Origin: Erysipelotrichaceae bacterium
GTDB taxonomy: Bacteria; Bacillota_I; Bacilli_A; Erysipelotrichales; Erysipelotrichaceae
DNA: 32,000 nucleotides
Direction: 5' to 3'
Assembly: GCA_017431825.1 (NCBI GenBank)
Contig: JAFRKI010000009.1
Span: 69,198-101,197 of the forward strand
This document shows positions 1,042-27,765 of this stretch, one piece after another. Below the pieces are notes generated by a model. The model searched no databases. It was given only the letters and a program-made list of their open reading frames with translations, and had not been told where the DNA came from. The stretch's first letter is position 1; each line of letters opens with the position of its first letter. The position numbers and the translations under genes were made by a program.

Positions 1042-1055
1042 AATAAACGGGCACA

Positions 1056-1083
1056 TTAACATAGATTATTAGCAGATTATAAG
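1056..1083 (+). promoter_or_regulatory. possible sigma-A-type promoter for the island operon
   Basis: TTAACA (1056-1061), a 16-nt spacer, then TATAAG (1078-1083), just upstream of the 1095 start. This is a weak pattern match in AT-rich DNA. Confidence 0.25.
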
Positions 1084-1094
1084 AAGTTTAGATT

Positions 1095-2708
1095 ATGAAA
1101 AGTATACCAATAGTAGTAGGCATAACTGGACATAGATTACTAAGAAAAAGCGATTATCCATTGCTTAAAGAAAGAGTAAGAACTGAATTGTCTCAAATAA
1201 AGGGATTATGTCCCAATTCTTCTTTAGTATTATTAGATTCAATAGCGTCTGGAGTGGATTCTCTTTGTGCTGAAGTTGCTTTAGAACTTGGTTATGAATT
1301 AGTTGTACCGTTGCCATTTGAACAAGATGAATATACTAAAGACTTTGAGGGAGAGGATTTAATAGTCTTTAAAGAGTTAATAAATAAAGCAAGCAAGAAA
1401 TTTGAACTTACCTCTTTAAGCGAAAATAATAGAGATCATGGTTATTTAGAAGCTGGTCTTTACATAGTAAAACATTCACATATTCTTATTGCATTATGGG
1501 ATGGCGGAGAACCAAAGCCTAATGGATGTGCAACTGCCGAAGTTGTTGACTTTGCTATGAGGGGAACAGATGAATCGAAAATAGTGCCGACTCCTATTAC
1601 GACCATAATTCACATTTATGCACCGAGAGCATCTGCGAAGGAAATAAAGAACGTTGGTGAAACTACAATTTATGAGAATAAGCAGAGTTCGATGTTCGAA
1701 TGCCTGTTTATGACTGATGAATTTAATAAAGAAAGCATTAATAGTGATTATGATAATTCTCTTGTTGACGAAGATACTCTAAAAGGACTGGATGTTCAGT
1801 TGAGTTATTACAACGACTTATATAAAAAAGCAGACAGCTTATCATCTTTTTATCAGAAAAAATATCTGAGTTCTTTAAAGCTGATATCCTTACTTAGTTC
1901 TTTCCTGGCGCTTAGCTATCTTCTTTATGATGAAATGGAGCTAAAGATCATGTCTTTGGTACTGATCTGTTTGATCATCACAGTAGCTGTTTATTTGCCA
2001 ACAAGGCCGAAGAAAGGAAAGTGGCACGAGAAGTACCTATCATATAGAATGTTAGCTGAAAGTCTGAGGATTCAGTTTTTTACATTTGCATGTGATGTAA
2101 AAAGAAATGTAGCAGATTTGTTTTCTTGGTCTACCAGAGAAGGAAACAACTGGACCTATAAAGCACTTAAGGTCATAGAACCAGTTGAGATCAATAATCT
2201 GTTTAAAGACCGAAGAGTATTAGAAACATGGATAAACGAACAACTCGATTATCATAAAAAAGCATATAAGAAGAACGATGAAAGTTTAAAAAGAAACAAT
2301 ACATATTCAGATATTTTGCTGTTAATGACTGTTTCATTATATTTAATCGTTGTTATGTTGGAACTTATGTTTCCTGTTTTCATGAACAAGATATTGTTGA
2401 CTCTAAACAATGAATTTCTGTTTATAAATAAGGGAACTGAACTTGATGTTAGGGGAATGTTTAAAATACTGACCGGTATCGTGGCAGCATCAGCTTTATT
2501 GTTGGCAAATTATTATGGTAAACTATCTTTAGATAATAAAGAAGATGATCACAAAAGATACACATCATTATATGTGGAGGCAAACAAAGTTTTAAGCAAT
2601 CCTACAGATGAACTTATTTGGGAATTAGCCAGAGAAGAGTTATTAATCAACAGCGCCTGGCTAACATATTCAAAGGAGAACGATTCAAACTTCTTAGATA
2701 TATTTTAG
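1095..2708 (+). CDS. SLOG-like nucleotide-sensor domain fused to two SLATT-like 2TM modules (4 TM helices); predicted membrane effector
   Basis: Residues 1-160 read IVVGITGHR...SGVDSLCAEVALELG...ILIALWDGGEPKPNGCATAEVVDFA, a Rossmann-like SLOG (LOG/DprA/YpsA-type) glycine-rich signature. TM pairs lie at about aa 259-301 and 404-473. The first pair is followed by WHEKYLSYRMLAESLRIQFF and the second is preceded by QLDYHKKAYKKNDESLKR, which are SLATT-type flanking helices. Confidence 0.55.
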   Translation: MKSIPIVVGITGHRLLRKSDYPLLKERVRTELSQIKGLCPNSSLVLLDSIASGVDSLCAEVALELGYELVVPLPFEQDEYTKDFEGEDLIVFKELINKASKKFELTSLSENNRDHGYLEAGLYIVKHSHILIALWDGGEPKPNGCATAEVVDFAMRGTDESKIVPTPITTIIHIYAPRASAKEIKNVGETTIYENKQSSMFECLFMTDEFNKESINSDYDNSLVDEDTLKGLDVQLSYYNDLYKKADSLSSFYQKKYLSSLKLISLLSSFLALSYLLYDEMELKIMSLVLICLIITVAVYLPTRPKKGKWHEKYLSYRMLAESLRIQFFTFACDVKRNVADLFSWSTREGNNWTYKALKVIEPVEINNLFKDRRVLETWINEQLDYHKKAYKKNDESLKRNNTYSDILLLMTVSLYLIVVMLELMFPVFMNKILLTLNNEFLFINKGTELDVRGMFKILTGIVAASALLLANYYGKLSLDNKEDDHKRYTSLYVEANKVLSNPTDELIWELAREELLINSAWLTYSKENDSNFLDIF

Positions 2709-2716
2709 GAATTACA

Positions 2717-4132
2717 ATGAACCACGAAGTTTTTATAAGTTATTCCAATAAGGATAAGAACGTAGCAGATGCGATAGTTAACCGCTTTGAATCCAGCGGT
2801 TTAAAGTGTTGGTATGCTCCAAGAGATATCAATCCTGGAAGCGAATGGGCGGAATCGATCGTTGAAGCCATTAAAGCTTCGAAAAAGATGATCCTTATCT
2901 TTACTGATTATTCCAACGCTTCAAAGCAGGTAGTCAGAGAAGTAGAGACAGCGATCAACAGCGGAGTGGTCGTTATTCCTTTTAAACTGACAGCCAGTAA
3001 TCCGTCAGGATCCATGGAGTATTACCTTTCGACTCTGCACTGGCTTGATGCCATGGATAAACCTTTAGACAACGCCATCAATGATCTGAAGGAAATGGTC
3101 ATAAATATTGATGCTTCAAAAAGCTATGTGCAGAAAAAGAAAAGAAATTTGAAGACAATCATAATATCATCGATACTAGTTTTAGCCATGATAGTTTCCG
3201 GTATCTTCTTCATAATTACAAATAAGAACAAGAATAATGAAAGTGATGTTTTTATCCCTGTTGATTATAATGAAAAGAATATTAATAATTGTTTGAATAG
3301 CAACCTTGTCTACTATTATGATGATGAAAACCTTTATTATAATTATTTATTATGGTTAGATGACGAAGGAGAAACCATTCCATATCCTCTTATCTTTGTT
3401 ACAAGTGAAAGAGATTTTTTATGGAATATAGCTGATCCTAATAAACTTGTTTGTATTAAACAAACGTCAAACTTTGCTGCTACAAAAGATTTTATATTTG
3501 ATGCTCCTGATAGCGGAGGCATCATTAGACATGATGTTTTGTCTGGTGAAGAAATAACTATTTATACTAATAACTGTTCAAATCTTTTAATTAACGGGGA
3601 TTGGTTGTTGTTTATTGATCTTTCTAATAATCAATTAATGAGAATAAGCTTTGATGGGTCTATAGTTGAACAATTTGACGGAGTATATGCAAGAAGTTTC
3701 TTTGTACATGATAAGAGAATCTTTTTTATTTCCAATGACGGTACTTTATGTATTTATGATAGCGGAGATATAATAAATACAAATAATAACAATATTATAA
3801 ATATGTGTTATGGCGACAGCAATTTATATCTTTACTGTTCAGTGGGCAACGGGATATATAGTGTTCCAATCAAAAGAAGGGAAGCTTTGCCAGAATACAT
3901 AACATCCATTGAAGATGAATTGACCTTTGACTTTACATACTGGAACAACAAACTATATTATATTAACGAAGATAAAAAAATACATGAATTAGATTTAATA
4001 ACCAAGGCAGATCATACAATAAGTACCCAGTATGAATTTGCTGTAGATATTAGTATTGTTAACGGAAGTATTTATGTAATGACGGCAGATTCGGAGAACA
4101 ACGCATATATTGAAATAATTGAGTTACAATGA
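2717..4132 (+). CDS. TIR domain - single TM - beta-propeller-like (DUF5050/TolB-like) protein, paralog 1
   Basis: The start is taken at the ATG at 2717 (MNHEVFISYSNKDK...), after an AGGA at -11 and 8 nt past the upstream stop. The 2618 start in the ORF track would overlap the previous gene by 91 nt. The TIR_2-type motifs are FISYSNKD, CWYAPRDINPG, IFTDYSNASKQVVREVETAI (candidate catalytic Glu about E75) and HWLDA. A TM helix lies at about aa 147-168, preceded by KKKRNLK. The C-terminal roughly 290 aa carries about 6 repeats such as NGDWLLFIDLSNNQLMRISFDGS and WNNKLYYINEDKKIHELDL. Confidence 0.7.
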   Translation: MNHEVFISYSNKDKNVADAIVNRFESSGLKCWYAPRDINPGSEWAESIVEAIKASKKMILIFTDYSNASKQVVREVETAINSGVVVIPFKLTASNPSGSMEYYLSTLHWLDAMDKPLDNAINDLKEMVINIDASKSYVQKKKRNLKTIIISSILVLAMIVSGIFFIITNKNKNNESDVFIPVDYNEKNINNCLNSNLVYYYDDENLYYNYLLWLDDEGETIPYPLIFVTSERDFLWNIADPNKLVCIKQTSNFAATKDFIFDAPDSGGIIRHDVLSGEEITIYTNNCSNLLINGDWLLFIDLSNNQLMRISFDGSIVEQFDGVYARSFFVHDKRIFFISNDGTLCIYDSGDIINTNNNNIINMCYGDSNLYLYCSVGNGIYSVPIKRREALPEYITSIEDELTFDFTYWNNKLYYINEDKKIHELDLITKADHTISTQYEFAVDISIVNGSIYVMTADSENNAYIEIIELQ

Positions 4133-5553
4133 ACCACGAAGTATTTATAAGTTATTCAAACAAGGACAAAAATGTGGCAGATGCGATAGTAAATCGCTTT
4201 GAATCCGGTGGTTTAAAGTGTTGGTATGCGCCTAGAGACATTAATCCTGGAAACGAATGGGCTGAATCTATTGTCAAGGCCATTAAAGCTTCAAAGACCA
4301 TGGTCCTTATTTTTACTGATTATTCTAATGCTTCAAAACAGGTAATTAGAGAAGTTGAAACTGCTATCAATAATGGAGTTGCCATTATTCCTTTCAAACT
4401 GACCGCCAGTAAGCCGTCAGGATCCATGGAATACTACCTTTCGACTTTACATTGGCTAGATGCCATGAACACCCCTCTAGACAATGCTATAAATGATTTG
4501 AAAGAAATGGCTCAAAATTTGAATAATTCAAAAAGTTTTGTTCAGAAAAAGAAGAAGAACAAAAAGACAATTATTATCACGTCAATACTGATTGTAGCTT
4601 TGATAGTTATCGGAATCTTCTTCATAATTTCAAATAAGAACAACAATAAAGAAAGCGATGTATTTATCCCTGTTGATTACTGTGAAAAGAATATAAACTA
4701 TTGTTTAAGTAAAAATGTTGTCTATTATTATGACAATGAAAACTTCTATTTATGCTATTTATATAATGGTGAAGACGGTATTTCATATCCATTACCTACC
4801 TCTATGGTTTTGGATATGAAAGAGAGTGATTTTTCTAAGGACGCAAATTTTGCAAATTATTTCGTTGCTCTTAATCCTTTCTTTAGTTGTGCGGCAACAA
4901 AAGATTACATTTTTATAGCTAACTCCAAAGGAGTTATTAGATATGAAGTATCTTCTGAAGAAGAAATAACCGTATATAATAAAGACGCTGAGAATTTATG
5001 TATTAATGGAGATTGGCTATTATTCATAGATTCAGATACAAAACAATTAATGAGAGTAAATTTCGATGGTTCGAAAATTGAAACTTTTAATGATGTTTAT
5101 GCAACGAGTTTCTTTATCCATGATAATAGAATTTATTTTATTTCCAATGATGAGGAATTATGCATATATGATAAAGGAGTAATAACAAAAGCCGACATAC
5201 AAGGCGGTTTCAGCCAAATGTGTTTTGACAATGATAATAGTATTTATGTATTTAATGGTTATAATAGGGCTTTTTACAGAATAGATCTAGATGGTAGCTT
5301 TAATCCTGAATTAGTCTATGTGTCCGAGAATACAATAGTTCCGTGGAATCTGTCCTTTTGGAATGGGAATCTTTATTATTCAGACATAGATTATAGAATC
5401 TGTGAACTCGACTTAGAAACTCAGCGGATAAATGATGTTCCAACAGAGCATAAGTATACAGTTATATTTAATATTATTGATGGACATATTTATGCCTTTA
5501 CCATGGATGAAATTTCAAAATATGAATATACAGAAATAATTGAATTACAGTAA
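4129..5553 (+). CDS. TIR domain - single TM - beta-propeller-like protein, paralog 2
   Basis: The architecture matches 2717..4132. Its ATG overlaps the upstream stop (ATGA at 4129-4132). By hand count the TIR part is about 90% identical to paralog 1 (12 differences in the first 125 aa). The C-terminal repeat domain is much more diverged, but both end in EIIELQ. Confidence 0.7.
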   Translation: MNHEVFISYSNKDKNVADAIVNRFESGGLKCWYAPRDINPGNEWAESIVKAIKASKTMVLIFTDYSNASKQVIREVETAINNGVAIIPFKLTASKPSGSMEYYLSTLHWLDAMNTPLDNAINDLKEMAQNLNNSKSFVQKKKKNKKTIIITSILIVALIVIGIFFIISNKNNNKESDVFIPVDYCEKNINYCLSKNVVYYYDNENFYLCYLYNGEDGISYPLPTSMVLDMKESDFSKDANFANYFVALNPFFSCAATKDYIFIANSKGVIRYEVSSEEEITVYNKDAENLCINGDWLLFIDSDTKQLMRVNFDGSKIETFNDVYATSFFIHDNRIYFISNDEELCIYDKGVITKADIQGGFSQMCFDNDNSIYVFNGYNRAFYRIDLDGSFNPELVYVSENTIVPWNLSFWNGNLYYSDIDYRICELDLETQRINDVPTEHKYTVIFNIIDGHIYAFTMDEISKYEYTEIIELQ

Positions 5554-5623
5554 ACTGTGTTTTAATAATTTTTATTTGTGAAAGTACTTATGTTTGATTG
5601 TTAATGAGAATAGGAAAGAGATT

Positions 5624-6349
5624 ATGACTACTATTATTGTTTTTTTAGCAGTATTGCCATCACTTGTATTGTTATTCTACATTTATAAAAGAGACTCAAT
5701 TAACAAGGAACCGAAGAGTCTTTTATTAAAATTGTTTGTCCTTGGTTGCTTATCGGTTATTCCTATAATAATAGCTGAATTTTTTGTTGTGGATTTAATG
5801 GATATTTATATTTTCGATAATACTTTATATAATCTTGTGGATGCTTTCGTTTGTGCTGCTTTGGTTGAAGAATCGATTAAATTCATCGTTACAAAATTGA
5901 CTATTTGGAAAAACAAAGCTTTTGATTCAACATTTGATGGAATGGTCTACTGTGCTTTTGTATCAATGGGCTTTGCCACGGTAGAAAACATAATATACTG
6001 CCTTTTCTTTGGCCTACCTACAGTTTTTTCTCGAATGTTTACTTCTATACCCGGCCATTTTTCTTTTGCTATTGTGATGGGCTTTTTCATATCAAAAGCC
6101 AAATATGAAGAGACCAAAGGCAAAAAACAAGAAATAAACACTAACAAAAGTAGAAAACTTCTAGCGTGTTCATTAATTATCCCTGTTATTCAACATGGAT
6201 TCTATGATTTTTGTTTGGTTCAAGATAGCAGAGTCCTGTTTTTTGTATTTATCCTAGTAGTTGTTTTCTCGTATTTAATAATTCTCATTATTGTGCATAG
6301 AGAACATAAAAGGGACACTTTGTTTTATGAAGACGATAGATTATTGTAA
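5624..6349 (+). CDS. PrsW-family intramembrane metalloprotease
   Basis: This is a polytopic membrane protein. Its N-terminus LPSLVLLFYIYKRDSINKEPKSLL, the motif VEESIKF (EExxK) and the motif QHGFYDF (HxxxD) are the PrsW signature motifs. I prefer the ATG at 5624, after AGGAAAGAG, over the TTG at 5594. Confidence 0.65.
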   Translation: MTTIIVFLAVLPSLVLLFYIYKRDSINKEPKSLLLKLFVLGCLSVIPIIIAEFFVVDLMDIYIFDNTLYNLVDAFVCAALVEESIKFIVTKLTIWKNKAFDSTFDGMVYCAFVSMGFATVENIIYCLFFGLPTVFSRMFTSIPGHFSFAIVMGFFISKAKYEETKGKKQEINTNKSRKLLACSLIIPVIQHGFYDFCLVQDSRVLFFVFILVVVFSYLIILIIVHREHKRDTLFYEDDRLL

Positions 6350-6845
6350 AAAGATTTTTTATGAAGCAAGTTGTTTTTATGAAGAGTCAAGTTCTACTTT
6401 TGAAAAGGTTTTAAAGTGTTCTCTATATTATGACGAAAATAACCAACCAGTTTTAGAACGTGATGCATTTTATTATTTCACATTTGTAATTGTTAATGGT
6501 GTTTTTGCTTGCGAATTATTTCTAAAGTCATTGATTTGTTACAAAACAAATAACGAGATTCAGGCAAATAGAACTCATTCATTAAAGAAACTAATCAATC
6601 TGTTAAGCAAAGATGATAGGGAAATAATAATGGAGACATTTGACAAGAACGAAATAGATGAAAGCAGTTTTAATTCCAAAATTGATGAAATTGATACAGC
6701 TTTCGTTGATTGGAGATATGTTTTTGAGGAAGGAAAGCACAGGTCGGTTGATTTAGTATTCTTGGATCATTTGCTTGGAATCTTAAGGTACATTGCCACT
6801 GAGGCATTTGAAAATGATAATAAAAAGCATTCAGATCCGGTCTGA
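6327..6845 (+). CDS. hypothetical all-alpha protein, tentatively HEPN-like
   Basis: The start is taken at the ATG at 6327 (MKTIDYCKK), overlapping the prsW-like stop by 23 nt. The motifs ACELFLKSLI ... NRTHSLKKLINLL ... FVDWRYVFE resemble HEPN-type helices. A canonical Rx4-6H spacing is not evident. Confidence 0.3.
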   Translation: MKTIDYCKKIFYEASCFYEESSSTFEKVLKCSLYYDENNQPVLERDAFYYFTFVIVNGVFACELFLKSLICYKTNNEIQANRTHSLKKLINLLSKDDREIIMETFDKNEIDESSFNSKIDEIDTAFVDWRYVFEEGKHRSVDLVFLDHLLGILRYIATEAFENDNKKHSDPV

Positions 6846-6850
6846 ATGCT
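6828..6850. terminator. hairpin between convergent genes (bidirectional terminator candidate)
   Basis: GCATTCAGA-tccgg-TCTGAATGC forms a perfect 9-bp stem spanning the TGA stop at 6843-6845, followed by TTTAAAT. Confidence 0.5.
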
Positions 6851-6861
6851 TTAAATACAGT

Positions 6862-7167
6862 TTAATCGTTTCTGTCGGTCTGTTTATAATCCAACGGCAC
6901 GATGGCCAGCGTTTTTCCTAATGCGAGTAGCACTTTCAATACCGTGTCGATCCTTGGAGAAGTATGGCCTTTTTCCATTCTGGCAATTACCGGCTGGCTT
7001 ACTCCGCATAATTCCTCGAGTTCTTTCTGACTGATCTTTTTTTCGTTACGGGCTTTGATCAGTTCACACATTAAAGCAACTCTCAGATCGCTTTCGGCAA
7101 TTTCTTCAGGCGTGAATATCTCTTTTTCTACTTCTTCCCAGCTTTGACCTATAGGGCTGTTTTTCAT
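6862..7167 (-). CDS. XRE-family helix-turn-helix antitoxin (HigA-like)
   Basis: KKISQKELEELCGVSQPVIARMEKGHTSPRIDTVLKVL is a classic XRE HTH. The gene overlaps the upstream toxin gene by 4 nt. Confidence 0.8.
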   Translation of the reverse strand: MKNSPIGQSWEEVEKEIFTPEEIAESDLRVALMCELIKARNEKKISQKELEELCGVSQPVIARMEKGHTSPRIDTVLKVLLALGKTLAIVPLDYKQTDRND

Positions 7168-7508
7168 TCTCCGTCACCTCTTTCTTTTATCTCTTTCAGT
7201 TCTTTCTTCGCACGTAAGATCTCTCTTCGCGGTGTCTTTTGAGTATTTTTTATAAAATGATGCAACAGGTAGTAGCTTTCTTCACTTCCGGCAACGAATA
7301 GTATCCTGTCTCTTAATGGCCTCAGTTCCCATATTTCATCCTGAAGATGCCTGACAAACGGCATATCTGCCTTGGTTCCTTGCATCTCAAGGATCTTGAT
7401 GTATTCCCGGATCTTTTCAAGTTTTATGCGGGCATCTTTTCCATTCTGGTCAGCCAGTTCCTTAAGATATTCCCTGAACGGCTGTTTTCCGTTTCTGTCT
7501 CTATACAG
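7164..7508 (-). CDS. Gp49/HigB-like (RelE/ParE superfamily) toxin; the start codon is unclear
   Basis: The ORF track starts at the ATG at 7385. The same frame stays open up to a TAA at 7541..7539. That upstream stretch encodes LYRDRNGKQPFREYLKELADQNGKDARIKLEKIREYIKILE, the usual N-terminal half of Gp49-like toxins. An AAAGGAGAAG Shine-Dalgarno lies at 7519..7510. The only start-like codon after it is the CTG at 7508..7506. Confidence 0.55.
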   Translation of the reverse strand: MYRDRNGKQPFREYLKELADQNGKDARIKLEKIREYIKILEMQGTKADMPFVRHLQDEIWELRPLRDRILFVAGSEESYYLLHHFIKNTQKTPRREILRAKKELKEIKERGDGE

Positions 7509-7524
7509 TCTTCTCCTTTCAATG

Positions 7525-7544
7525 TAATAACTTATAAGTTATTA
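7525..7544. promoter_or_regulatory. 20-bp perfect palindrome, candidate TA operator
   Basis: TAATAACTTA|TAAGTTATTA lies immediately upstream of the toxin gene. The half-site TAAGTTATT recurs at 7560-7568. GTTATTGAA is directly repeated at 7564-7572 and 7599-7607. Confidence 0.5.
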
Positions 7545-7683
7545 TTCAATAAGTACTTTTAAGTTATTGAACGTATAGTCTGATATAAGCCTCAATATGT
7601 TATTGAAAGGAAAAGACACAATTCCTAAAGAAAGTAAATAATCGCTGATATATGTTAAACTGTTAGAAAAAAGGGGAAAGCAT

Positions 7684-8769
7684 ATGGAAAACAGAGTATA
7701 CAACTTTGCAGCCGGACCATCGATGCTGGCAGACGATGTTCTGATCAGAATGAAGGAAGAACTTTTCAATTATAAAGATACGGGCATGTCGGTGATGGAG
7801 ATGTCACACCGTTCAAAGATCTATCTGAAGATCTTCGAAGAGACCAAGGATACCTTGAGAAGAGTCATGGATATCCCGGAAGATTACGAGATCCTTTTCA
7901 TGCATGGCGGAGCGACCGGACAGTTTGCAGCCATCGGTCTTAACATCCTTAAAGGAAACAAAGCCGACTATGTCATTACCGGCAACTTTTCCAAGAAAGC
8001 TGCTCAGGAAGCGGCAAAATACGGCGAAGTCCACATCGCTTATGATGGCAAGGACAACAACTATTCCCATATACCTCTTCAGGATGAACTGGGTCTTTCA
8101 CCCGATGCCAGGTATGTCCATATCTGTGCCAACAACACCATTTTCGGGACCGAATGGAAGTCTTTCCCTGATGTCAAAGGTAAGATACTGATCGCCGATA
8201 TGAGTTCCGATATCCTTTCAAAAAAGGTAAATGTCAAAGACTTCGGTATGATCTATGCCGGAGCCCAGAAGAATATGGGCATAGCCGGAATAGCCGTCGT
8301 CATCATCCATAAGAGCCTCATCAGCGAAGCTCTGGCGGATACGCCTGCCGTTCTTTCCTATGAACTGATGCAGAAGAACGATTCCATGTACAATACCCCG
8401 GCTACCTATCCGATCTATGTCTTAGGCAAGGTGCTGGAATGGATCGAAGAGATCGGCGGTCTTGAGGAAATGGAAAGAAGGAACAGGGCCAAGGCAGCAG
8501 TCCTCTATGACTATCTTGACTCTCAGGCTTTCTATAGACCGCATGCGGAAAAGGACAGCAGATCGCTCATGAACGTCACCTTCACGACACCTGATCCGGA
8601 ACTCGATGTCTTATTCGCAAGCGAAGCAGCCAAACAGGGTCTGGTGAACCTGAAGGGTCACAGACTGGTGGGAGGTCTCAGAGCATCGATATACAATGCG
8701 ATGCCTTTGGCAGGCGCGGAGAAACTGGTAAGCTTCATGAGGGACTTTGCGAAGGAGAACGATAAATGA
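7684..8769 (+). CDS. serC: phosphoserine aminotransferase
   Basis: MENRVYNFAAGPSMLADDVL...GAQKNMGIAG...LKGHRLVGGLRASIYNAMP are canonical SerC motifs, including the PLP Lys in AQKN. Confidence 0.9.
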   Translation: MENRVYNFAAGPSMLADDVLIRMKEELFNYKDTGMSVMEMSHRSKIYLKIFEETKDTLRRVMDIPEDYEILFMHGGATGQFAAIGLNILKGNKADYVITGNFSKKAAQEAAKYGEVHIAYDGKDNNYSHIPLQDELGLSPDARYVHICANNTIFGTEWKSFPDVKGKILIADMSSDILSKKVNVKDFGMIYAGAQKNMGIAGIAVVIIHKSLISEALADTPAVLSYELMQKNDSMYNTPATYPIYVLGKVLEWIEEIGGLEEMERRNRAKAAVLYDYLDSQAFYRPHAEKDSRSLMNVTFTTPDPELDVLFASEAAKQGLVNLKGHRLVGGLRASIYNAMPLAGAEKLVSFMRDFAKENDK

Positions 8770-9964: not shown

Positions 9965-10040
9965 TGGCGGTGCATACGGGAATCGAACCCGTGATCTCCT
10001 CCGTGACAGGGAGGCATGTTAACCGCTACACCAATGCACC
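9965..10040 (-). tRNA. tRNA-Asp (GTC)
   Basis: The reverse complement folds as a cloverleaf. The acceptor stem is GGTGCAT/ATGCACC, the anticodon loop is CTGTCAC, the T-loop is GGTTCGATTCC, and the 3' CCA is encoded. Confidence 0.9.
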
Positions 10041-10149
10041 ATTACATTAGTTGCTACTTAATAATAAACTATTTTATCCCTTTATTCAAGTATGAAGAGT
10101 TTCTTTTTTTCATAAATAATGTTTTAATCAAATTGTAAAGGAAAGAGCT

Positions 10150-11031
10150 ATGGAATATACGGCTAGAAGCGAATATATCGATATATTCTTCGATGCCGTC
10201 AGTGCCGGTACCTTCGATCTGCTGATGCCGGATAATACTGATGTGATGTTTTTTGATCTGCTTTTATCCTTCGGCAATATAGCGGATGTAAATGACTTTG
10301 AATCAAGAAGAAAGGACTATCTTTCCATAGTTCCAAAGTTCCATGACAAAGCCATCACCGATAATATCTGGTGGGGAAGCTTTGCGAGAAACAATGGGAT
10401 CGACAGGCTGAGATCATCCGGTTCCAAGATCAGGATCTGGGCCAGCAAGAGAGCTTCCGATGATCTGTGCGGACTTTATTATCTCTGCAGCGAATTGACG
10501 GACAATGATCTGTATCTCGTCGATATTCCGATGAACGGCGACAGCAGAGTCAACTACAACGATGTGATCTGTTACCTCAGCGGCAACTCGGACGGAACCT
10601 TCAATATGATAGATCCAAGCGAAAAGGAAGCGGAATACTACAATGATTTCCATAAGGGCATCATCTTCAATCGAATAAATGACGACAAAAAGAAAGAGTA
10701 CGCAGATAAGTGGCGGAAACTCGTGGAAGAGAACTCTGACTTAAGAACATATGACAGGGGAGTGGTGACATCCTATTACTATGATGACTACTATGATGTA
10801 CTGCTGAGGATGACCGGCAGTAAGCAGTTCCTTAAATACAGTTCCGCTCCCGAGTTTCTCATATCCCTCAATGCTTCATACGATCTCAATATCTGGCAGA
10901 TACAGGCCACCATATCCGATATGGCTGATAAAGGAGCCTTCATGGTACTGGGAGAACTGGAGATCGATCCCGGTGCACCGGCTACCGATTACTATCTCAT
11001 AGCCAACAAGAACTACAGCACCAGAAACTGA
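10150..11031 (+). CDS. hypothetical protein, DUF1835/DUF3658-like
   Basis: KIRIWASKRASDDLCGLYYLCSEL and ADKWRKLVEENSDLRTYDRGVVTSYYYDDYYDVLL resemble the DUF1835 and DUF3658 signature regions. The function is unknown. Confidence 0.4.
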   Translation: MEYTARSEYIDIFFDAVSAGTFDLLMPDNTDVMFFDLLLSFGNIADVNDFESRRKDYLSIVPKFHDKAITDNIWWGSFARNNGIDRLRSSGSKIRIWASKRASDDLCGLYYLCSELTDNDLYLVDIPMNGDSRVNYNDVICYLSGNSDGTFNMIDPSEKEAEYYNDFHKGIIFNRINDDKKKEYADKWRKLVEENSDLRTYDRGVVTSYYYDDYYDVLLRMTGSKQFLKYSSAPEFLISLNASYDLNIWQIQATISDMADKGAFMVLGELEIDPGAPATDYYLIANKNYSTRN

Positions 11032-11052
11032 TATCCGATATGCAGCAAAACA

Positions 11053-11080
11053 AAAGCATTCCCTACGGAATGCTTTATTT
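11053..11080. terminator. rho-independent terminator
   Basis: AAAGCATTCC-ctac-GGAATGCTTT forms a perfect 10-bp stem followed by ATTT. Confidence 0.7.
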
Positions 11081-11084
11081 CTGA

Positions 11085-11158
11085 TGGAGCAGATGAAGGG
11101 AATCGAACCCTCGTGTCGACCTTGGCAAGGTCGCGTTCTACCATTGAACTACATCTGC
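11085..11158 (-). tRNA. tRNA-Gly (GCC)
   Basis: The reverse complement is GCAGATGTAGTTCAATGGTAGAAC...TTGCCAA...GGTTCGATTCCC...CATCTGCTCCA. The anticodon is GCC. Confidence 0.9.
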
Positions 11159-11164
11159 AGATTC

Positions 11165-11256
11165 TGGCGAAGATGGAGGGATTTGAACCCTCGCGCCGGA
11201 TAACCCGACCTAAGGCCTTAGCAGGGCCTCCTCTTCAGCCACTTGAGTACATCTTC
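11165..11256 (-). tRNA. tRNA-Ser (GCT)
   Basis: The reverse complement starts GAAGATGTACTCAAGTGG. The anticodon loop is CTGCTAA, a long variable arm is present, the T-loop is GGTTCAAATCC, and CCA is encoded. Confidence 0.9.
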
Positions 11257-11373
11257 ATGCCAACGCTTAAGCCAGATATTTGGTGCTTTCTAATTATACA
11301 CAGATATATCTTTTTTTACAAGATACAATATTCAAATTATCATTATCCAGTTTAAAGAGTGTAGAATGAACTT

Positions 11374-12312
11374 ATGAAAGTATTTGATATGCATGCCGAT
11401 ATGGGCACCAATTTCTATGAAAGACAGCTTAACGGAGAGAAGGATGTCTTCAGGAACTACAATAAGAACAACCTTAACGAAGGCGAAGTCAGAGGGGTCT
11501 TCACGGCCTGTTTCTTTGAAGGCAGGGAAGACTGGGACTATATGCAGAAGATGATAGAGTTCTGCAATCAGGAAATCAGTTCCAACAGCGACGTCCTAAG
11601 ACAGGTGAAAAGCAGGGAAGATCTGATCGAAGACGACAAGACCCTGGCCGTCATATCCGTTGAAGGAATGTGCGGAGTAAGAGACCATGCCGATGAAAAG
11701 GTAGAGTGGATGTATGAACACGGTGTTAGAGTGGCATCTCTGGTGTGGAATGAGTCCAACGCCCTGGCCAACGGCTGGAAGCAGGATCCTTTAAGAGGCC
11801 TCAGTGAAGAAGGCTTCAAGGCTGTCAGGAAGATGAACGAGCTGAAGATGGTGATCGATGTTTCCCATATCAATGAGAAGGGTTTCTGGGACGTGATAAG
11901 CACGAGTGAAAGACCGATCATCGCCACCCATTCCAACTGTAGAAAGCTCTGCAGCCATCAGCGGAATCTCACTGACCAGCAGATCAGGGCCATAGCCTCA
12001 AGAGGAGGTCTTATCGGTCTTAATGCCTGTGCTCATTTCATCAGTGAAGACGTCAGTAAGCAGACTTCTCTTGAACTTGCAGAACATGCCCGTTATATGG
12101 CCGATCTTGTGGGTGTTGAGCATATCGCCTGCGGCTTTGACTACATGGACTTCCTGATCGGTGACTACAGCGATGATATGGCTAAGGACATGACCAACGC
12201 TTCCTATACCCAGAATCTCATCAGATCGCTTAAGGAAGTCGGTTTCAGCGATGAAGAAACTGCAGCTATTGCGTTCTATAATGTCTTCAATTTCTTAAAG
12301 AAAGAATTATAG
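11374..12312 (+). CDS. membrane dipeptidase (peptidase family M19)
   Basis: VFDMHADMG, SVEGM, VASLVWNESN, IDVSHINEKGFWD and IATHSNCRKLC are M19 renal-dipeptidase-type metal-ligand motifs. Confidence 0.8.
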   Translation: MKVFDMHADMGTNFYERQLNGEKDVFRNYNKNNLNEGEVRGVFTACFFEGREDWDYMQKMIEFCNQEISSNSDVLRQVKSREDLIEDDKTLAVISVEGMCGVRDHADEKVEWMYEHGVRVASLVWNESNALANGWKQDPLRGLSEEGFKAVRKMNELKMVIDVSHINEKGFWDVISTSERPIIATHSNCRKLCSHQRNLTDQQIRAIASRGGLIGLNACAHFISEDVSKQTSLELAEHARYMADLVGVEHIACGFDYMDFLIGDYSDDMAKDMTNASYTQNLIRSLKEVGFSDEETAAIAFYNVFNFLKKEL

Positions 12313-12326
12313 AGTATAATTTAAAC

Positions 12327-12812
12327 ATGGCTATCGCAAGATTTGAAAAGGTATCCAGGGAGCAGTTCACCAAGGATCTTAAGGAACTTCTGGGCAGTGA
12401 AGATGAGTTTTATGATGACATCATCCTGCCTGTAAGAGCCACTAAGGGTTCGGCCGGCTATGACTTCAGCAGTCCTGTCGATGTCACCTTAAGACCGGGC
12501 GAAATGGTCAAGGTACCAAGCGGCATAAGATGCTGCATCGAGGAAGGCTATGTCCTTCACATCTATCCCCGCTCTTCCTTGGGCTTTAAATACCAGCTCA
12601 GCTTAGCCAATACCACCGGCATCATCGATGCCGACTACTACAACGCCCTCAATGAAGGGCACATCATCGTCGCTCTGGTAAACAGAGGTAATAAGGACAT
12701 CGTCATTAAGAAAGGCGAACGTTTCGTCCAGGGCATCTTCCTTAAGTTCTATACGGCTGAGGAAGAGGAAGTGACGAACGTACGGACAGGAGGCTTTGGT
12801 TCCAGTAACTGA
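12327..12812 (+). CDS. dut: dUTP diphosphatase
   Basis: RATKGSAGYDF, IYPRSSLG, GIIDADYY and the C-terminal RTGGFGSS are the trimeric dUTPase motifs. Confidence 0.85.
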   Translation: MAIARFEKVSREQFTKDLKELLGSEDEFYDDIILPVRATKGSAGYDFSSPVDVTLRPGEMVKVPSGIRCCIEEGYVLHIYPRSSLGFKYQLSLANTTGIIDADYYNALNEGHIIVALVNRGNKDIVIKKGERFVQGIFLKFYTAEEEEVTNVRTGGFGSSN

Positions 12813-12814
12813 AT

Positions 12815-12890
12815 GCGCCTGTAGCTCAATGGATAGAGTGTTTGATTCCGATTCAAAAGGCTGTAGGTTCGATTCCTATCAGGCGCGCCA
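12815..12890 (+). tRNA. tRNA-Arg (CCG)
   Basis: GCGCCTGTAGCTCAATGGATAGAG...TTCCGAT...GGTTCGATTCC...CAGGCGCGCCA. The anticodon is CCG. Confidence 0.9.
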
Positions 12891-27676: not shown

Positions 27677-27765
27677 TGGCGCAGTGGGTGGGATTCGAAC
27701 CCACGGACCGTTGCCGGTCAAACGATTTCGAATCGTTCTCGTTATGACCACTTCGATACCACTGC
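27677..27765 (-). tRNA. tRNA-Ser (CGA)
   Basis: The reverse complement starts GCAGTGGTATCGAAGTGGTC. The anticodon loop is TTCGAAA, a long variable arm is present, the T-loop is GGTTCGAATCC, and CCA is encoded. Confidence 0.9.

Follow-up and report, generated by a model that had tools for sequence, protein, structure and literature searches.

A candidate Thoeris-like second-messenger module with predicted membrane-anchored TIR proteins and a putative SLOG-controlled membrane effector

Do three tightly packed genes of an Erysipelotrichaceae bacterium encode a signalling module in which TIR-domain proteins make a nucleotide that a neighbouring membrane protein reads? The genes lie in a stretch of 32,000 nucleotides (nt) of contig JAFRKI010000009.1 (GenBank assembly GCA_017431825.1, positions 69,198 to 101,197 of the forward strand), which is called the window here and to whose first letter all positions refer. 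The original prediction, made from the letters alone, was of a Thoeris-type system with a membrane effector carrying SLOG and SLATT domains (gene 1), followed by two TIR genes (genes 2 and 3). After structure modelling, family searches and a comparison of homologous loci, the locus is read as a Thoeris-like second-messenger module of membrane proteins with a SLOG-controlled membrane effector. A probability of about 0.55 is given to this reading.

The three genes are on the + strand, at 1095-2708 (537 amino acids, aa), 2717-4132 (471 aa, ATG start) and 4129-5553 (474 aa). The TAG stop codon of gene 1 (2706-2708) is followed by 8 nt (gaattaca) and then by the ATG of gene 2 at 2717. Genes 2 and 3 share an ATGA at 4129-4132, where stop and start codons overlap. 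This layout of three co-oriented open reading frames (ORFs) had been described before and was borne out by the ORFs and the sequence. The motifs quoted with it (GITGHR, SGVDSLCAEVA, WDGGEPKPNGCATAEVV, WHEKYLSYRMLAESLRIQFF, QLDYHKKAYKK and REVE) were all found in the translations. The features of the module, with transmembrane abbreviated as TM and AlphaFold2 as AF2, are as follows.

1095..2708, + strand: gene 1, SLOG-4TM protein, putative signal-gated membrane effector (ORF, AF2 model, family search)
1095..1690, + strand: SLOG (YpsA/DprA-like Rossmannoid) domain of gene 1, aa 1-~198 (Foldseek, YAcAr matches, invariant columns)
1794..2099, + strand: first 2TM module of gene 1 with flanking helices, aa ~234-335, SLATT-clan-like (sub-threshold Pfam/NCBIfam matches, AF2)
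2211..2705, + strand: second 2TM module of gene 1 with C-terminal helices, aa ~373-537, family-specific (AF2 secondary structure)
2717..4132, + strand: gene 2, with TIR domain aa 1-133 (nt 2717-3115), TM helix aa 145-171 (nt 3149-3229) and beta-propeller aa 205-470 (nt 3329-4126) (TIR_2, AF2, Foldseek)
4129..5553, + strand: gene 3, tandem paralog of the same architecture, with TIR domain nt 4129-4527, TM helix nt ~4555-4644 and propeller nt ~4741-5550 (TIR_2, identity to gene 2)

Architecture of the three proteins

Gene 1 was modelled with AF2 from an alignment of 41 homologs (predicted local distance difference test score, pLDDT, 89.6; predicted template modelling score, pTM, 0.89). Foldseek assigned aa 1-~200 to the SLOG superfamily, with YpsA as the top match (2nx2, E 5e-6, TMt 0.65). 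DprA, ShosA, the Moco carrier protein (MCP) and LOG enzymes were also matched. The SLOG structure of ThsA (7uxs) was a marginal match (E 0.21), and TRPM2, an ADP-ribose (ADPR)-gated channel with a SLOG-like N-terminal domain, a weak one (E 0.23). At the level of sequence the domain was recognized weakly: Pfam YAcAr was matched below its cut-off (E 0.052), and across the family YAcAr was matched by 7/41 members and DNA_processg_A by 2/41. Four motifs are conserved, GxTGHR (aa 9-14), AxGxD (51-55), ALWDG (133-137) and GTAE (146-149), and provide the glycine-rich loops expected of a SLOG fold. The predicted structure thus confirmed the SLOG fold that had been proposed for the N-terminus and its place in the superfamily, although the sequence match alone is weak.

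The gene 1 family is large. None of the 118 full-length relatives that a homolog search returned is named informatively. A profile search over 1.84 billion representatives, with clusters formed at 50% identity, yielded 3,515 clusters at the cut-off of E<=1e-30 and 8,277 when it was relaxed to E<=1e-10; most are 500-650 aa long. The SLOG-4TM family has no Pfam model. Its profile matched nothing meaningful among PDB sequences, where the fold search alone succeeded. No TIR-SLOG-4TM fusion was present among the longer members. A phage origin of the family was considered and is unlikely, with one full-length match in 2.9 million viral contigs.

Beyond the SLOG domain, gene 1 is helical, with four TM segments according to the AF2 model and the sequence. 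In the first 2TM module, the model contains a long helix (aa 234-281), a helix at aa 285-300 and an amphipathic helix (aa 310-332), and Y278, R318, E322 and R325 are invariant. SLATT-clan matches cover aa 242-334: Pfam SLATT_3 (E 0.0022, 18.7 bits, cut-off 26.3), Pfam DUF4231 (E 0.019, 15.8 bits, cut-off 24.7) and NCBIfam SLATT_3 (E 6.6e-5, 23 bits, cut-off 45). No curated threshold of a SLATT-clan profile in Pfam or NCBIfam was reached. DUF4231, which we take to be a member of the SLATT clan in agreement with co-matches on one protein at the locus of a distant homolog (P0296), was matched by 19/41 family members (best E 7.6e-7). Among precomputed Pfam matches, SLATT_3 or DUF4231 is found in a few family members. 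The second module has an outward beta-hairpin (aa 433-451) and invariant Q383, E514 and W522. None of the C-terminal halves of 10 family members matched any SLATT model. An internal duplication of the 2TM modules was tried as an explanation and rejected (hhalign of module 1 against module 2, probability 0.8%). Two SLATT modules had been proposed for gene 1; the first is SLATT-like below threshold, whereas the second is not, and only the first shows the SLATT plan of a 2TM hairpin flanked by conserved cytoplasmic helices. The accurate description of gene 1 is a SLOG domain, a SLATT-like module and a family-specific 2TM extension.

Genes 2 and 3 both exceed the curated cut-off of Pfam TIR_2, which they match over aa 5-115 (E 4.4e-21 and E 5.6e-21, respectively). 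The putative catalytic residue E75 is invariant in an alignment of 39 TIR-TM-propeller homologs, and so are S69, Q71, R74, W32-R36 and an N-terminal FxSYS, so that the TIR_2 domains and the conserved glutamate of the REVE motif stand as first described (E ~5e-21; E75 in all 39). In both proteins the TIR domain is followed by one strongly hydrophobic helix (aa ~143-172). The AF2 model of gene 2 has a mean pLDDT of 80, with ~85-95 for the TIR and C-terminal domains, and its C-terminus is all-beta over ~270 aa. Foldseek matched this C-terminal domain to BamB, to a seven-bladed protein of Eubacterium rectale (3s25, TMt 0.69) and to the YWTD propellers of LRP6. Homologs of genes 2 and 3 carry Pfam PF16472, an LRP1-like beta-propeller. 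Lys and Arg residues average 4.0 before the TM helix against 1.6 after it, and are more numerous before it in 71/81 TIR or TIR-like proteins. By the positive-inside rule, these basic residues place the TIR domain in the cytoplasm and the propeller outside. Both genes are therefore predicted to encode type-II single-pass membrane proteins, with the TIR domain in and the propeller out.

Genes 2 and 3 do not encode soluble sensors of the ThsB kind; their predicted TM helix (aa ~145-171) and extracytoplasmic propeller had been overlooked in the original prediction. The PADLOC ThsB models matched genes 2 and 3 at E 1.9e-4 to 3.3e-3, with better matches to the SAVED_TIR and Aga_TIR models, and NCBIfam ThcB4 matched gene 3 at E 0.033. 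With the TIR-TM-propeller architecture, the sensing logic is likely to differ from that of soluble ThsB. A keyword search of the open-access literature for membrane-anchored bacterial TIR receptors with ectodomains returned nothing relevant, which is weak evidence.

Genes 2 and 3 were compared in 40-codon windows. Protein identity was 70-97% over the TIR domain and TM helix (aa 1-200) and 18-62% over the ectodomain. Nonsynonymous (dN) and synonymous (dS) divergence was 0.085 and 1.20 over the TIR domain and TM helix (dN/dS ~0.07), and 0.46 and 1.75 over the ectodomain. With dS above 1, the genes are old tandem paralogs. These rates indicate strong purifying selection on the TIR domain and TM helix and a far more diverged ectodomain, a pattern to be expected where signalling is kept constant and the specificity for ligands diversifies.

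Gene neighbourhoods of the homologs

GTDB species representatives were scanned and at least 570 gene 1 loci were found. The best 80, nearly all from metagenome-assembled genomes of rumen or gut Clostridia, were examined. TIR genes were called with an iteratively built TIR hidden Markov model. A locus counted as well flanked if 4 kb or more of sequence was available on each side (48 loci), and TIR genes were counted within 6 kb. TIR genes lay beside the gene 1 homolog in 41 examined loci. A TIR gene on the same strand was present in 29/48 well-flanked loci (60%), a TIR or degenerate TIR-like gene in 34/48 (71%), a gene for a partner called HD-RyR here in 27/48 (56%), and at least one of the three in 41/48 (85%). 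Placement was directional, with 57 TIR genes upstream on the same strand against 4 downstream, and no TIR gene was found in 355 kb of flank located 2-8 kb downstream of gene 1 homologs. The nearest relative of gene 1 (locus L102, 44% identity) has the order of the window, the gene 1 homolog being directly followed by a TIR gene. Among three distant homologs from other lineages, two are preceded by a TIR_2 gene of the same operon. TIR genes and gene 1 are thus co-conserved as an operon across genomes, in near and in distant relatives; this was the decisive check on the original prediction, and its outcome was positive.

The TIR-TM-ectodomain plan was found in 49/62 of the neighbouring TIR proteins, with ectodomains made of leucine-rich repeats (LRR), WD40/PQQ-like propellers or LRP1-like propellers. 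The same operons also encode LRR proteins of 900-1,300 aa (L051:4927-7989; L026:2102-5929; L014:4237-7752; others). Their N-terminus is a degenerate TIR-like domain of ~120 aa, after which comes a single TM helix. The degenerate domain was aligned to TIR by hhalign with a probability of 97.3% (E 2e-11). Perhaps without catalytic activity of their own, these LRR proteins may act as co-receptors for the active TIR-TM proteins.

The HD-RyR partner is a soluble protein of ~600-700 aa whose gene adjoins the gene 1 homolog in 32 examined loci, usually immediately upstream (L027:5923-7956; L001:6195-7967; L026:5942-7972; 29 other loci); no such gene is present in the window. Motifs of the H..HD..H..D type are invariant in it, with weak Pfam HD matches in 4/24 members. 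A C-terminal RyR domain (PF02026) was recognized in 11/24 members (best E 1.3e-15). Against PDB, the profile of the protein matched the Repeat12 region of RyR and a Bacteroides 'putative ryanodine receptor'. An EHxxW...GW motif is invariant. Phage RyR-domain proteins (RyDEP) bind 2'/3' cyclic ADP-ribose (cADPR) at nanomolar affinity or cleave it, relying on a His and on the Trp three positions after it (PMC13232231, May 2026 preprint). We infer that the EHxxW of HD-RyR corresponds to H75/W78 of RyDEP. The HD-RyR partner, taken with cADPR binding by RyDEP, is an independent pointer to a place of the gene 1 family in an ADPR-type nucleotide pathway.

More than 431 relatives of the TIR-TM-propeller/LRR_5 proteins were found, and they are abundant in gut Firmicutes. 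They often stand alone or pair with other proteins that lack annotation. At one locus (L087), a second TIR-LRR_5 gene is located 6.5 kb from the first, and a genome may thus hold several receptors of this kind. A 588-aa gene beside one of the sampled TIR relatives (P0127) was considered as a counterpart of gene 1 and rejected, being unrelated to it and having no Pfam match.

The low-GC island and its other genes

The module is part of an island of low GC content between deoC (382-1041) and serC (7684-8769), with a serA-like gene beyond that extends to 9917 (NCBIfam). The other features of the island are as follows.

1042..7600, no strand: low-GC island, GC 0.29-0.35 against ~0.48 in the flanks (composition profile)
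5624..6349, + strand: gene 4, PrsW-family intramembrane protease, 71 nt downstream of gene 3 (Pfam PrsW-protease E 5.9e-35)
6291..6845, + strand: gene 5, 184 aa, overlapping gene 4 at its end (weak, sub-threshold Pfam HEPN match, E 0.0079)
6862-7167, - strand: HigA-like helix-turn-helix (HTH) antitoxin (HTH_3 E 7.8e-15)
7164-7385, - strand: Gp49/HigB-like toxin (Gp49 E 9.4e-16)

Gene 4 also matched NCBIfam PrsW (E 1.4e-43, below the equivalog cut-off), and gene 5 had no sequence match in PDB. Both genes are co-oriented with the module and tightly packed, but they were rejected as conserved partners, as no homologs of theirs adjoin gene 1 relatives elsewhere. PrsW cleaves the anti-sigma factor RsiW, a single-pass protein with N-in/C-out topology. 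Since the TIR proteins share this topology, regulated proteolysis of TIR receptors by PrsW is conceivable. At another locus (L004), a 359-aa protein lacking annotation and an M48/M56 membrane peptidase are encoded after the gene 1 homolog.

The HigBA-like pair is convergent to the module at the edge of the island and is a neighbour outside the module. The nearest relative of gene 1 adjoins a PIN/MazE pair (L102:131-756), and one distant homolog (P0296 locus) stands amid TIR-NB-ARC, SLATT and RHS genes. Toxin-antitoxin modules may mark the gene 1 islands as mobile. With genes 4 and 5 and the toxin-antitoxin pair not being conserved partners, the island of the window is a mosaic. Five tRNA genes (Asp, Gly, Ser, Arg, Ser) were located downstream of serA, at 9965-12890 and 27677-27765. 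None abuts the island, which is therefore not an obvious tRNA-targeted insertion. A scan for promoters and terminators was uninformative. A hairpin with a 12-bp stem (6824-6852) lies where gene 5 and the HTH antitoxin gene converge, and probably terminates transcription in both directions.

Proposed mechanism, rival explanations and known systems

The mechanism proposed for the module is as follows. A surface event, with phage adsorption or another extracellular ligand as candidate triggers, would alter the oligomeric state of the TIR proteins. Their cytoplasmic TIR domains, in which Glu75 is kept, would then convert NAD+ to an ADPR-derived signal. The signal would be bound by the SLOG domain of gene 1; an adjacent putative effector is present, and its predicted fold is of a type able to bind such a ligand. 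The four-helix part of gene 1 would open or oligomerize and make the membrane permeable, with growth arrest or cell death as the outcome. The module may have an anti-phage role. Of this scheme, the analysis established the domain architectures, the predicted topology and the operonic linkage of gene 1 homologs to TIR genes and to genes for RyR-domain proteins.

Several results weigh against this mechanism. In a December 2025 preprint that defines Thoeris types I-XI (Yirmiya et al., bioRxiv 10.64898/2025.12.03.692087), a candidate class named 'SLOG and 4TM' is listed with five TIRs from Actinobacteria, Nitrospira and metagenomes (Tables S1/S2). Two systems of this class, from Streptomyces sp. 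GKU 895 and Ca. Nitrospira nitrosa COMA1 as named there, were tested and gave no defence in E. coli (10.64898/2025.12.03.692087). The three TIR-TM-propeller/LRR_5 relatives that were sampled (L087:7001-10425; L091:7001-8494; L095:7001-8392) all lack a gene 1 homolog nearby, so these TIRs need not have this effector. Conversely, 17 gene 1 loci have the HD-RyR partner only, with no TIR gene nearby. Housekeeping genes make up most of the homologs' neighbourhoods, and when 144 neighbours were scanned with PADLOC, crudely and without a baseline, the matches were only scattered, so that no clear sign of a defence island emerges. Gene 1 is matched by none of the PADLOC models, and its second TM module is without a known relative among the SLATT models searched with 10 members.

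The same housekeeping contexts, without clear defence-island enrichment, would suit an explanation that we consider unlikely, in which the proteins serve non-immune signalling. The ectodomains would sense a ligand of the environment or the cell envelope, such as neighbouring cells, glycans from host or diet, or fragments of the wall. The TIR product would gate gene 1 as a regulated ion channel, in analogy to ADPR-gated TRPM2, and physiology would change with no death. Beta-propeller, LRR_5 and LRR_4 ectodomains are typical of surface proteins of gut Clostridia, TRPM2 is among the weak Foldseek matches (E 0.23), and hardly any member of the large family occurs in viral contigs. Conflict is suggested, however, by the setting of the module, a low-GC island beside a toxin-antitoxin pair, by the PIN/MazE pair next to the nearest relative and by the TIR-NB-ARC, SLATT and RHS genes around the distant homolog, although most other contexts are housekeeping. 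An expansion of paralogs with divergent ectodomains fits an arms race, and the characterized SLATT and SLOG-TM effectors covered in the Thoeris preprint all belong to conflict systems (10.64898/2025.12.03.692087). It is improbable, too, that the TIR-TM-propellers are self-contained effectors or receptors that deplete NAD+, with gene 1 acting independently or in a modulating role such as buffering or reporting ADPR. Related TIR-TM-X genes frequently stand alone, and many bacterial TIRs are described in that preprint as NADase effectors and not as signal producers (10.64898/2025.12.03.692087). Against this, the adjacency of gene 1 is strong, directional and operonic, the partner proteins carry SLOG and RyR ligand-binding domains, and the degenerate TIR-like paralogs in the same operons suggest hetero-oligomeric signalling complexes.

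Two further explanations concern gene 1 itself. Its SLOG domain might be a membrane-tethered enzyme, a LOG-like N-glycosidase or a nucleotide-processing one, that degrades or converts the nucleotide signal. LOG enzymes carry a PGGxGTxxE motif, which the GxGTxE-type motif kept in the gene 1 family resembles, and LOG structures were among the Foldseek matches. This is nevertheless very improbable, as the best matches, YpsA and DprA, are of the non-catalytic or sensor branch, and fusion to a conserved 4TM part with SLATT similarity is more typical of effectors. Sensing of cADPR has been placed in the YpsA-like clade (PMC9503650). The mosaic island, where genes 4 and 5 and the toxin-antitoxin pair are not conserved partners, might also have brought together unrelated membrane-protein genes by horizontal acquisition. 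Such chance adjacency hardly deserves belief and was effectively refuted by the same-strand TIR linkage in 29/48 loci and the directional placement (57 against 4). Dozens of species, also of different phyla, show the pairing again and keep its strand and order. In the window, only 8 nt separate genes 1 and 2, and the stop codon of gene 2 overlaps the start codon of gene 3.

For the Thoeris-like module as preferred here, a wider setting is proposed tentatively, and we would not call it probable. Gut and rumen Clostridia may possess a receptor-type TIR pathway, in which families of paralogs combine a cytoplasmic TIR or degenerate TIR-like domain and one TM helix with variable LRR or propeller ectodomains. 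These would sense an outside ligand, such as the tail or receptor-binding protein of an adsorbing phage, and a NAD-derived nucleotide would be passed to two readers, the SLOG-gated effector and HD-RyR. If true, a TLR (Toll-like receptor)-like outside-in topology would be seen for the first time in a bacterial immune or signalling system, and the pathway would be a prokaryotic counterpart of the cADPR/ADPR-TRPM2/RyR signalling axis. To our knowledge, the TIR sensor is intracellular in every characterized Thoeris type. If the predicted topology is true, the TIRs of the window read the outside of the cell, which would be a new sensing mode for bacterial TIR signalling and would possibly allow phage detection before DNA entry. 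A function would also be given to two large unannotated families of gut and rumen Firmicutes, SLOG-4TM and TIR-TM-propeller/LRR. Through the HD-RyR partner, host-encoded RyR domains would be tied to a pathway in which phage RyR proteins bind cADPR isomers. The module escapes existing defence finders.

Burroughs and co-workers, writing in NAR in 2015, reportedly defined both SLOG and SLATT. In the preprint on Thoeris types I-XI, SLATT occurs in type VII, which has the SLATT effector ThsH and canonical cADPR as signal (10.64898/2025.12.03.692087). Type VII resembles the window in the TIR gene beside a SLATT-type membrane effector and in the predicted breaching of the membrane once a TIR-made ADPR derivative is bound. 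ThsH is described there as SLATT alone, with proposed cADPR binding between SLATT protomers. By contrast, gene 1 has a fused N-terminal SLOG domain and a second, unrelated 2TM module, and its SLATT similarity is sub-threshold only. Unlike those of type VII, the TIRs of the window are predicted to be membrane-anchored and to carry ectodomains.

Type I has a SIR2-SLOG effector whose SLOG domain reads a 3'cADPR signal, according to the same preprint (10.64898/2025.12.03.692087). The likeness lies in a TIR producer with a SLOG reader and in the several TIR paralogs often found per locus. The output of gene 1 is a 4TM module and not a SIR2 NADase, however, its SLOG domain is N-terminal and of YpsA/DprA (YAcAr) type, and ThsB models match genes 2 and 3 weakly. 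In type II, a Macro-TM pore responds to His-ADPR (10.64898/2025.12.03.692087). A ligand-binding domain fused to TM helices that kill via a pore would be common to both, but the sensor domain is SLOG here and Macro there. Type III, with several TIRs and a SLOG effector, is similar in gene content; its effector is described there only as SLOG-containing (10.64898/2025.12.03.692087).

Closest by description, which is how they were compared, is the 'SLOG and 4TM' class, with SLOG and four TM helices beside a TIR gene; its five listed TIR domains are weakly similar to the TIR domain of gene 2 (best 18 bits). The effector combination had been put forward as without precedent. This claim was given up: a TIR with SLATT is type VII, and the 'SLOG and 4TM' class is already listed, as tested and non-defending, in the preprint. 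Pairing a TIR with a SLOG-TM effector is thus an idea already catalogued, though unvalidated. The Clostridial family with ectodomain TIRs and the HD-RyR partner is absent from the covered parts of the dataset (10.64898/2025.12.03.692087), and both the outward-facing TIR sensors and this partner appear undescribed so far.

Analogies were also drawn with eukaryotic proteins. A single-pass receptor with a repeat ectodomain and a cytoplasmic TIR is the plan of TLRs; the order is reversed here, with an N-terminal TIR, a TM helix and a C-terminal ectodomain. At many homolog loci the partner protein carries an RyR (R12) domain, which no gene of the window encodes. A SLOG-type domain would control a membrane permeability module in gene 1 as in ADPR-gated TRPM2; no homology of the TM parts of gene 1 to TRPM or RyR channels was found. 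The main interest of the locus lies in the outward-facing TIR sensors, as predicted, and in the large unannotated effector family to which gene 1 belongs.

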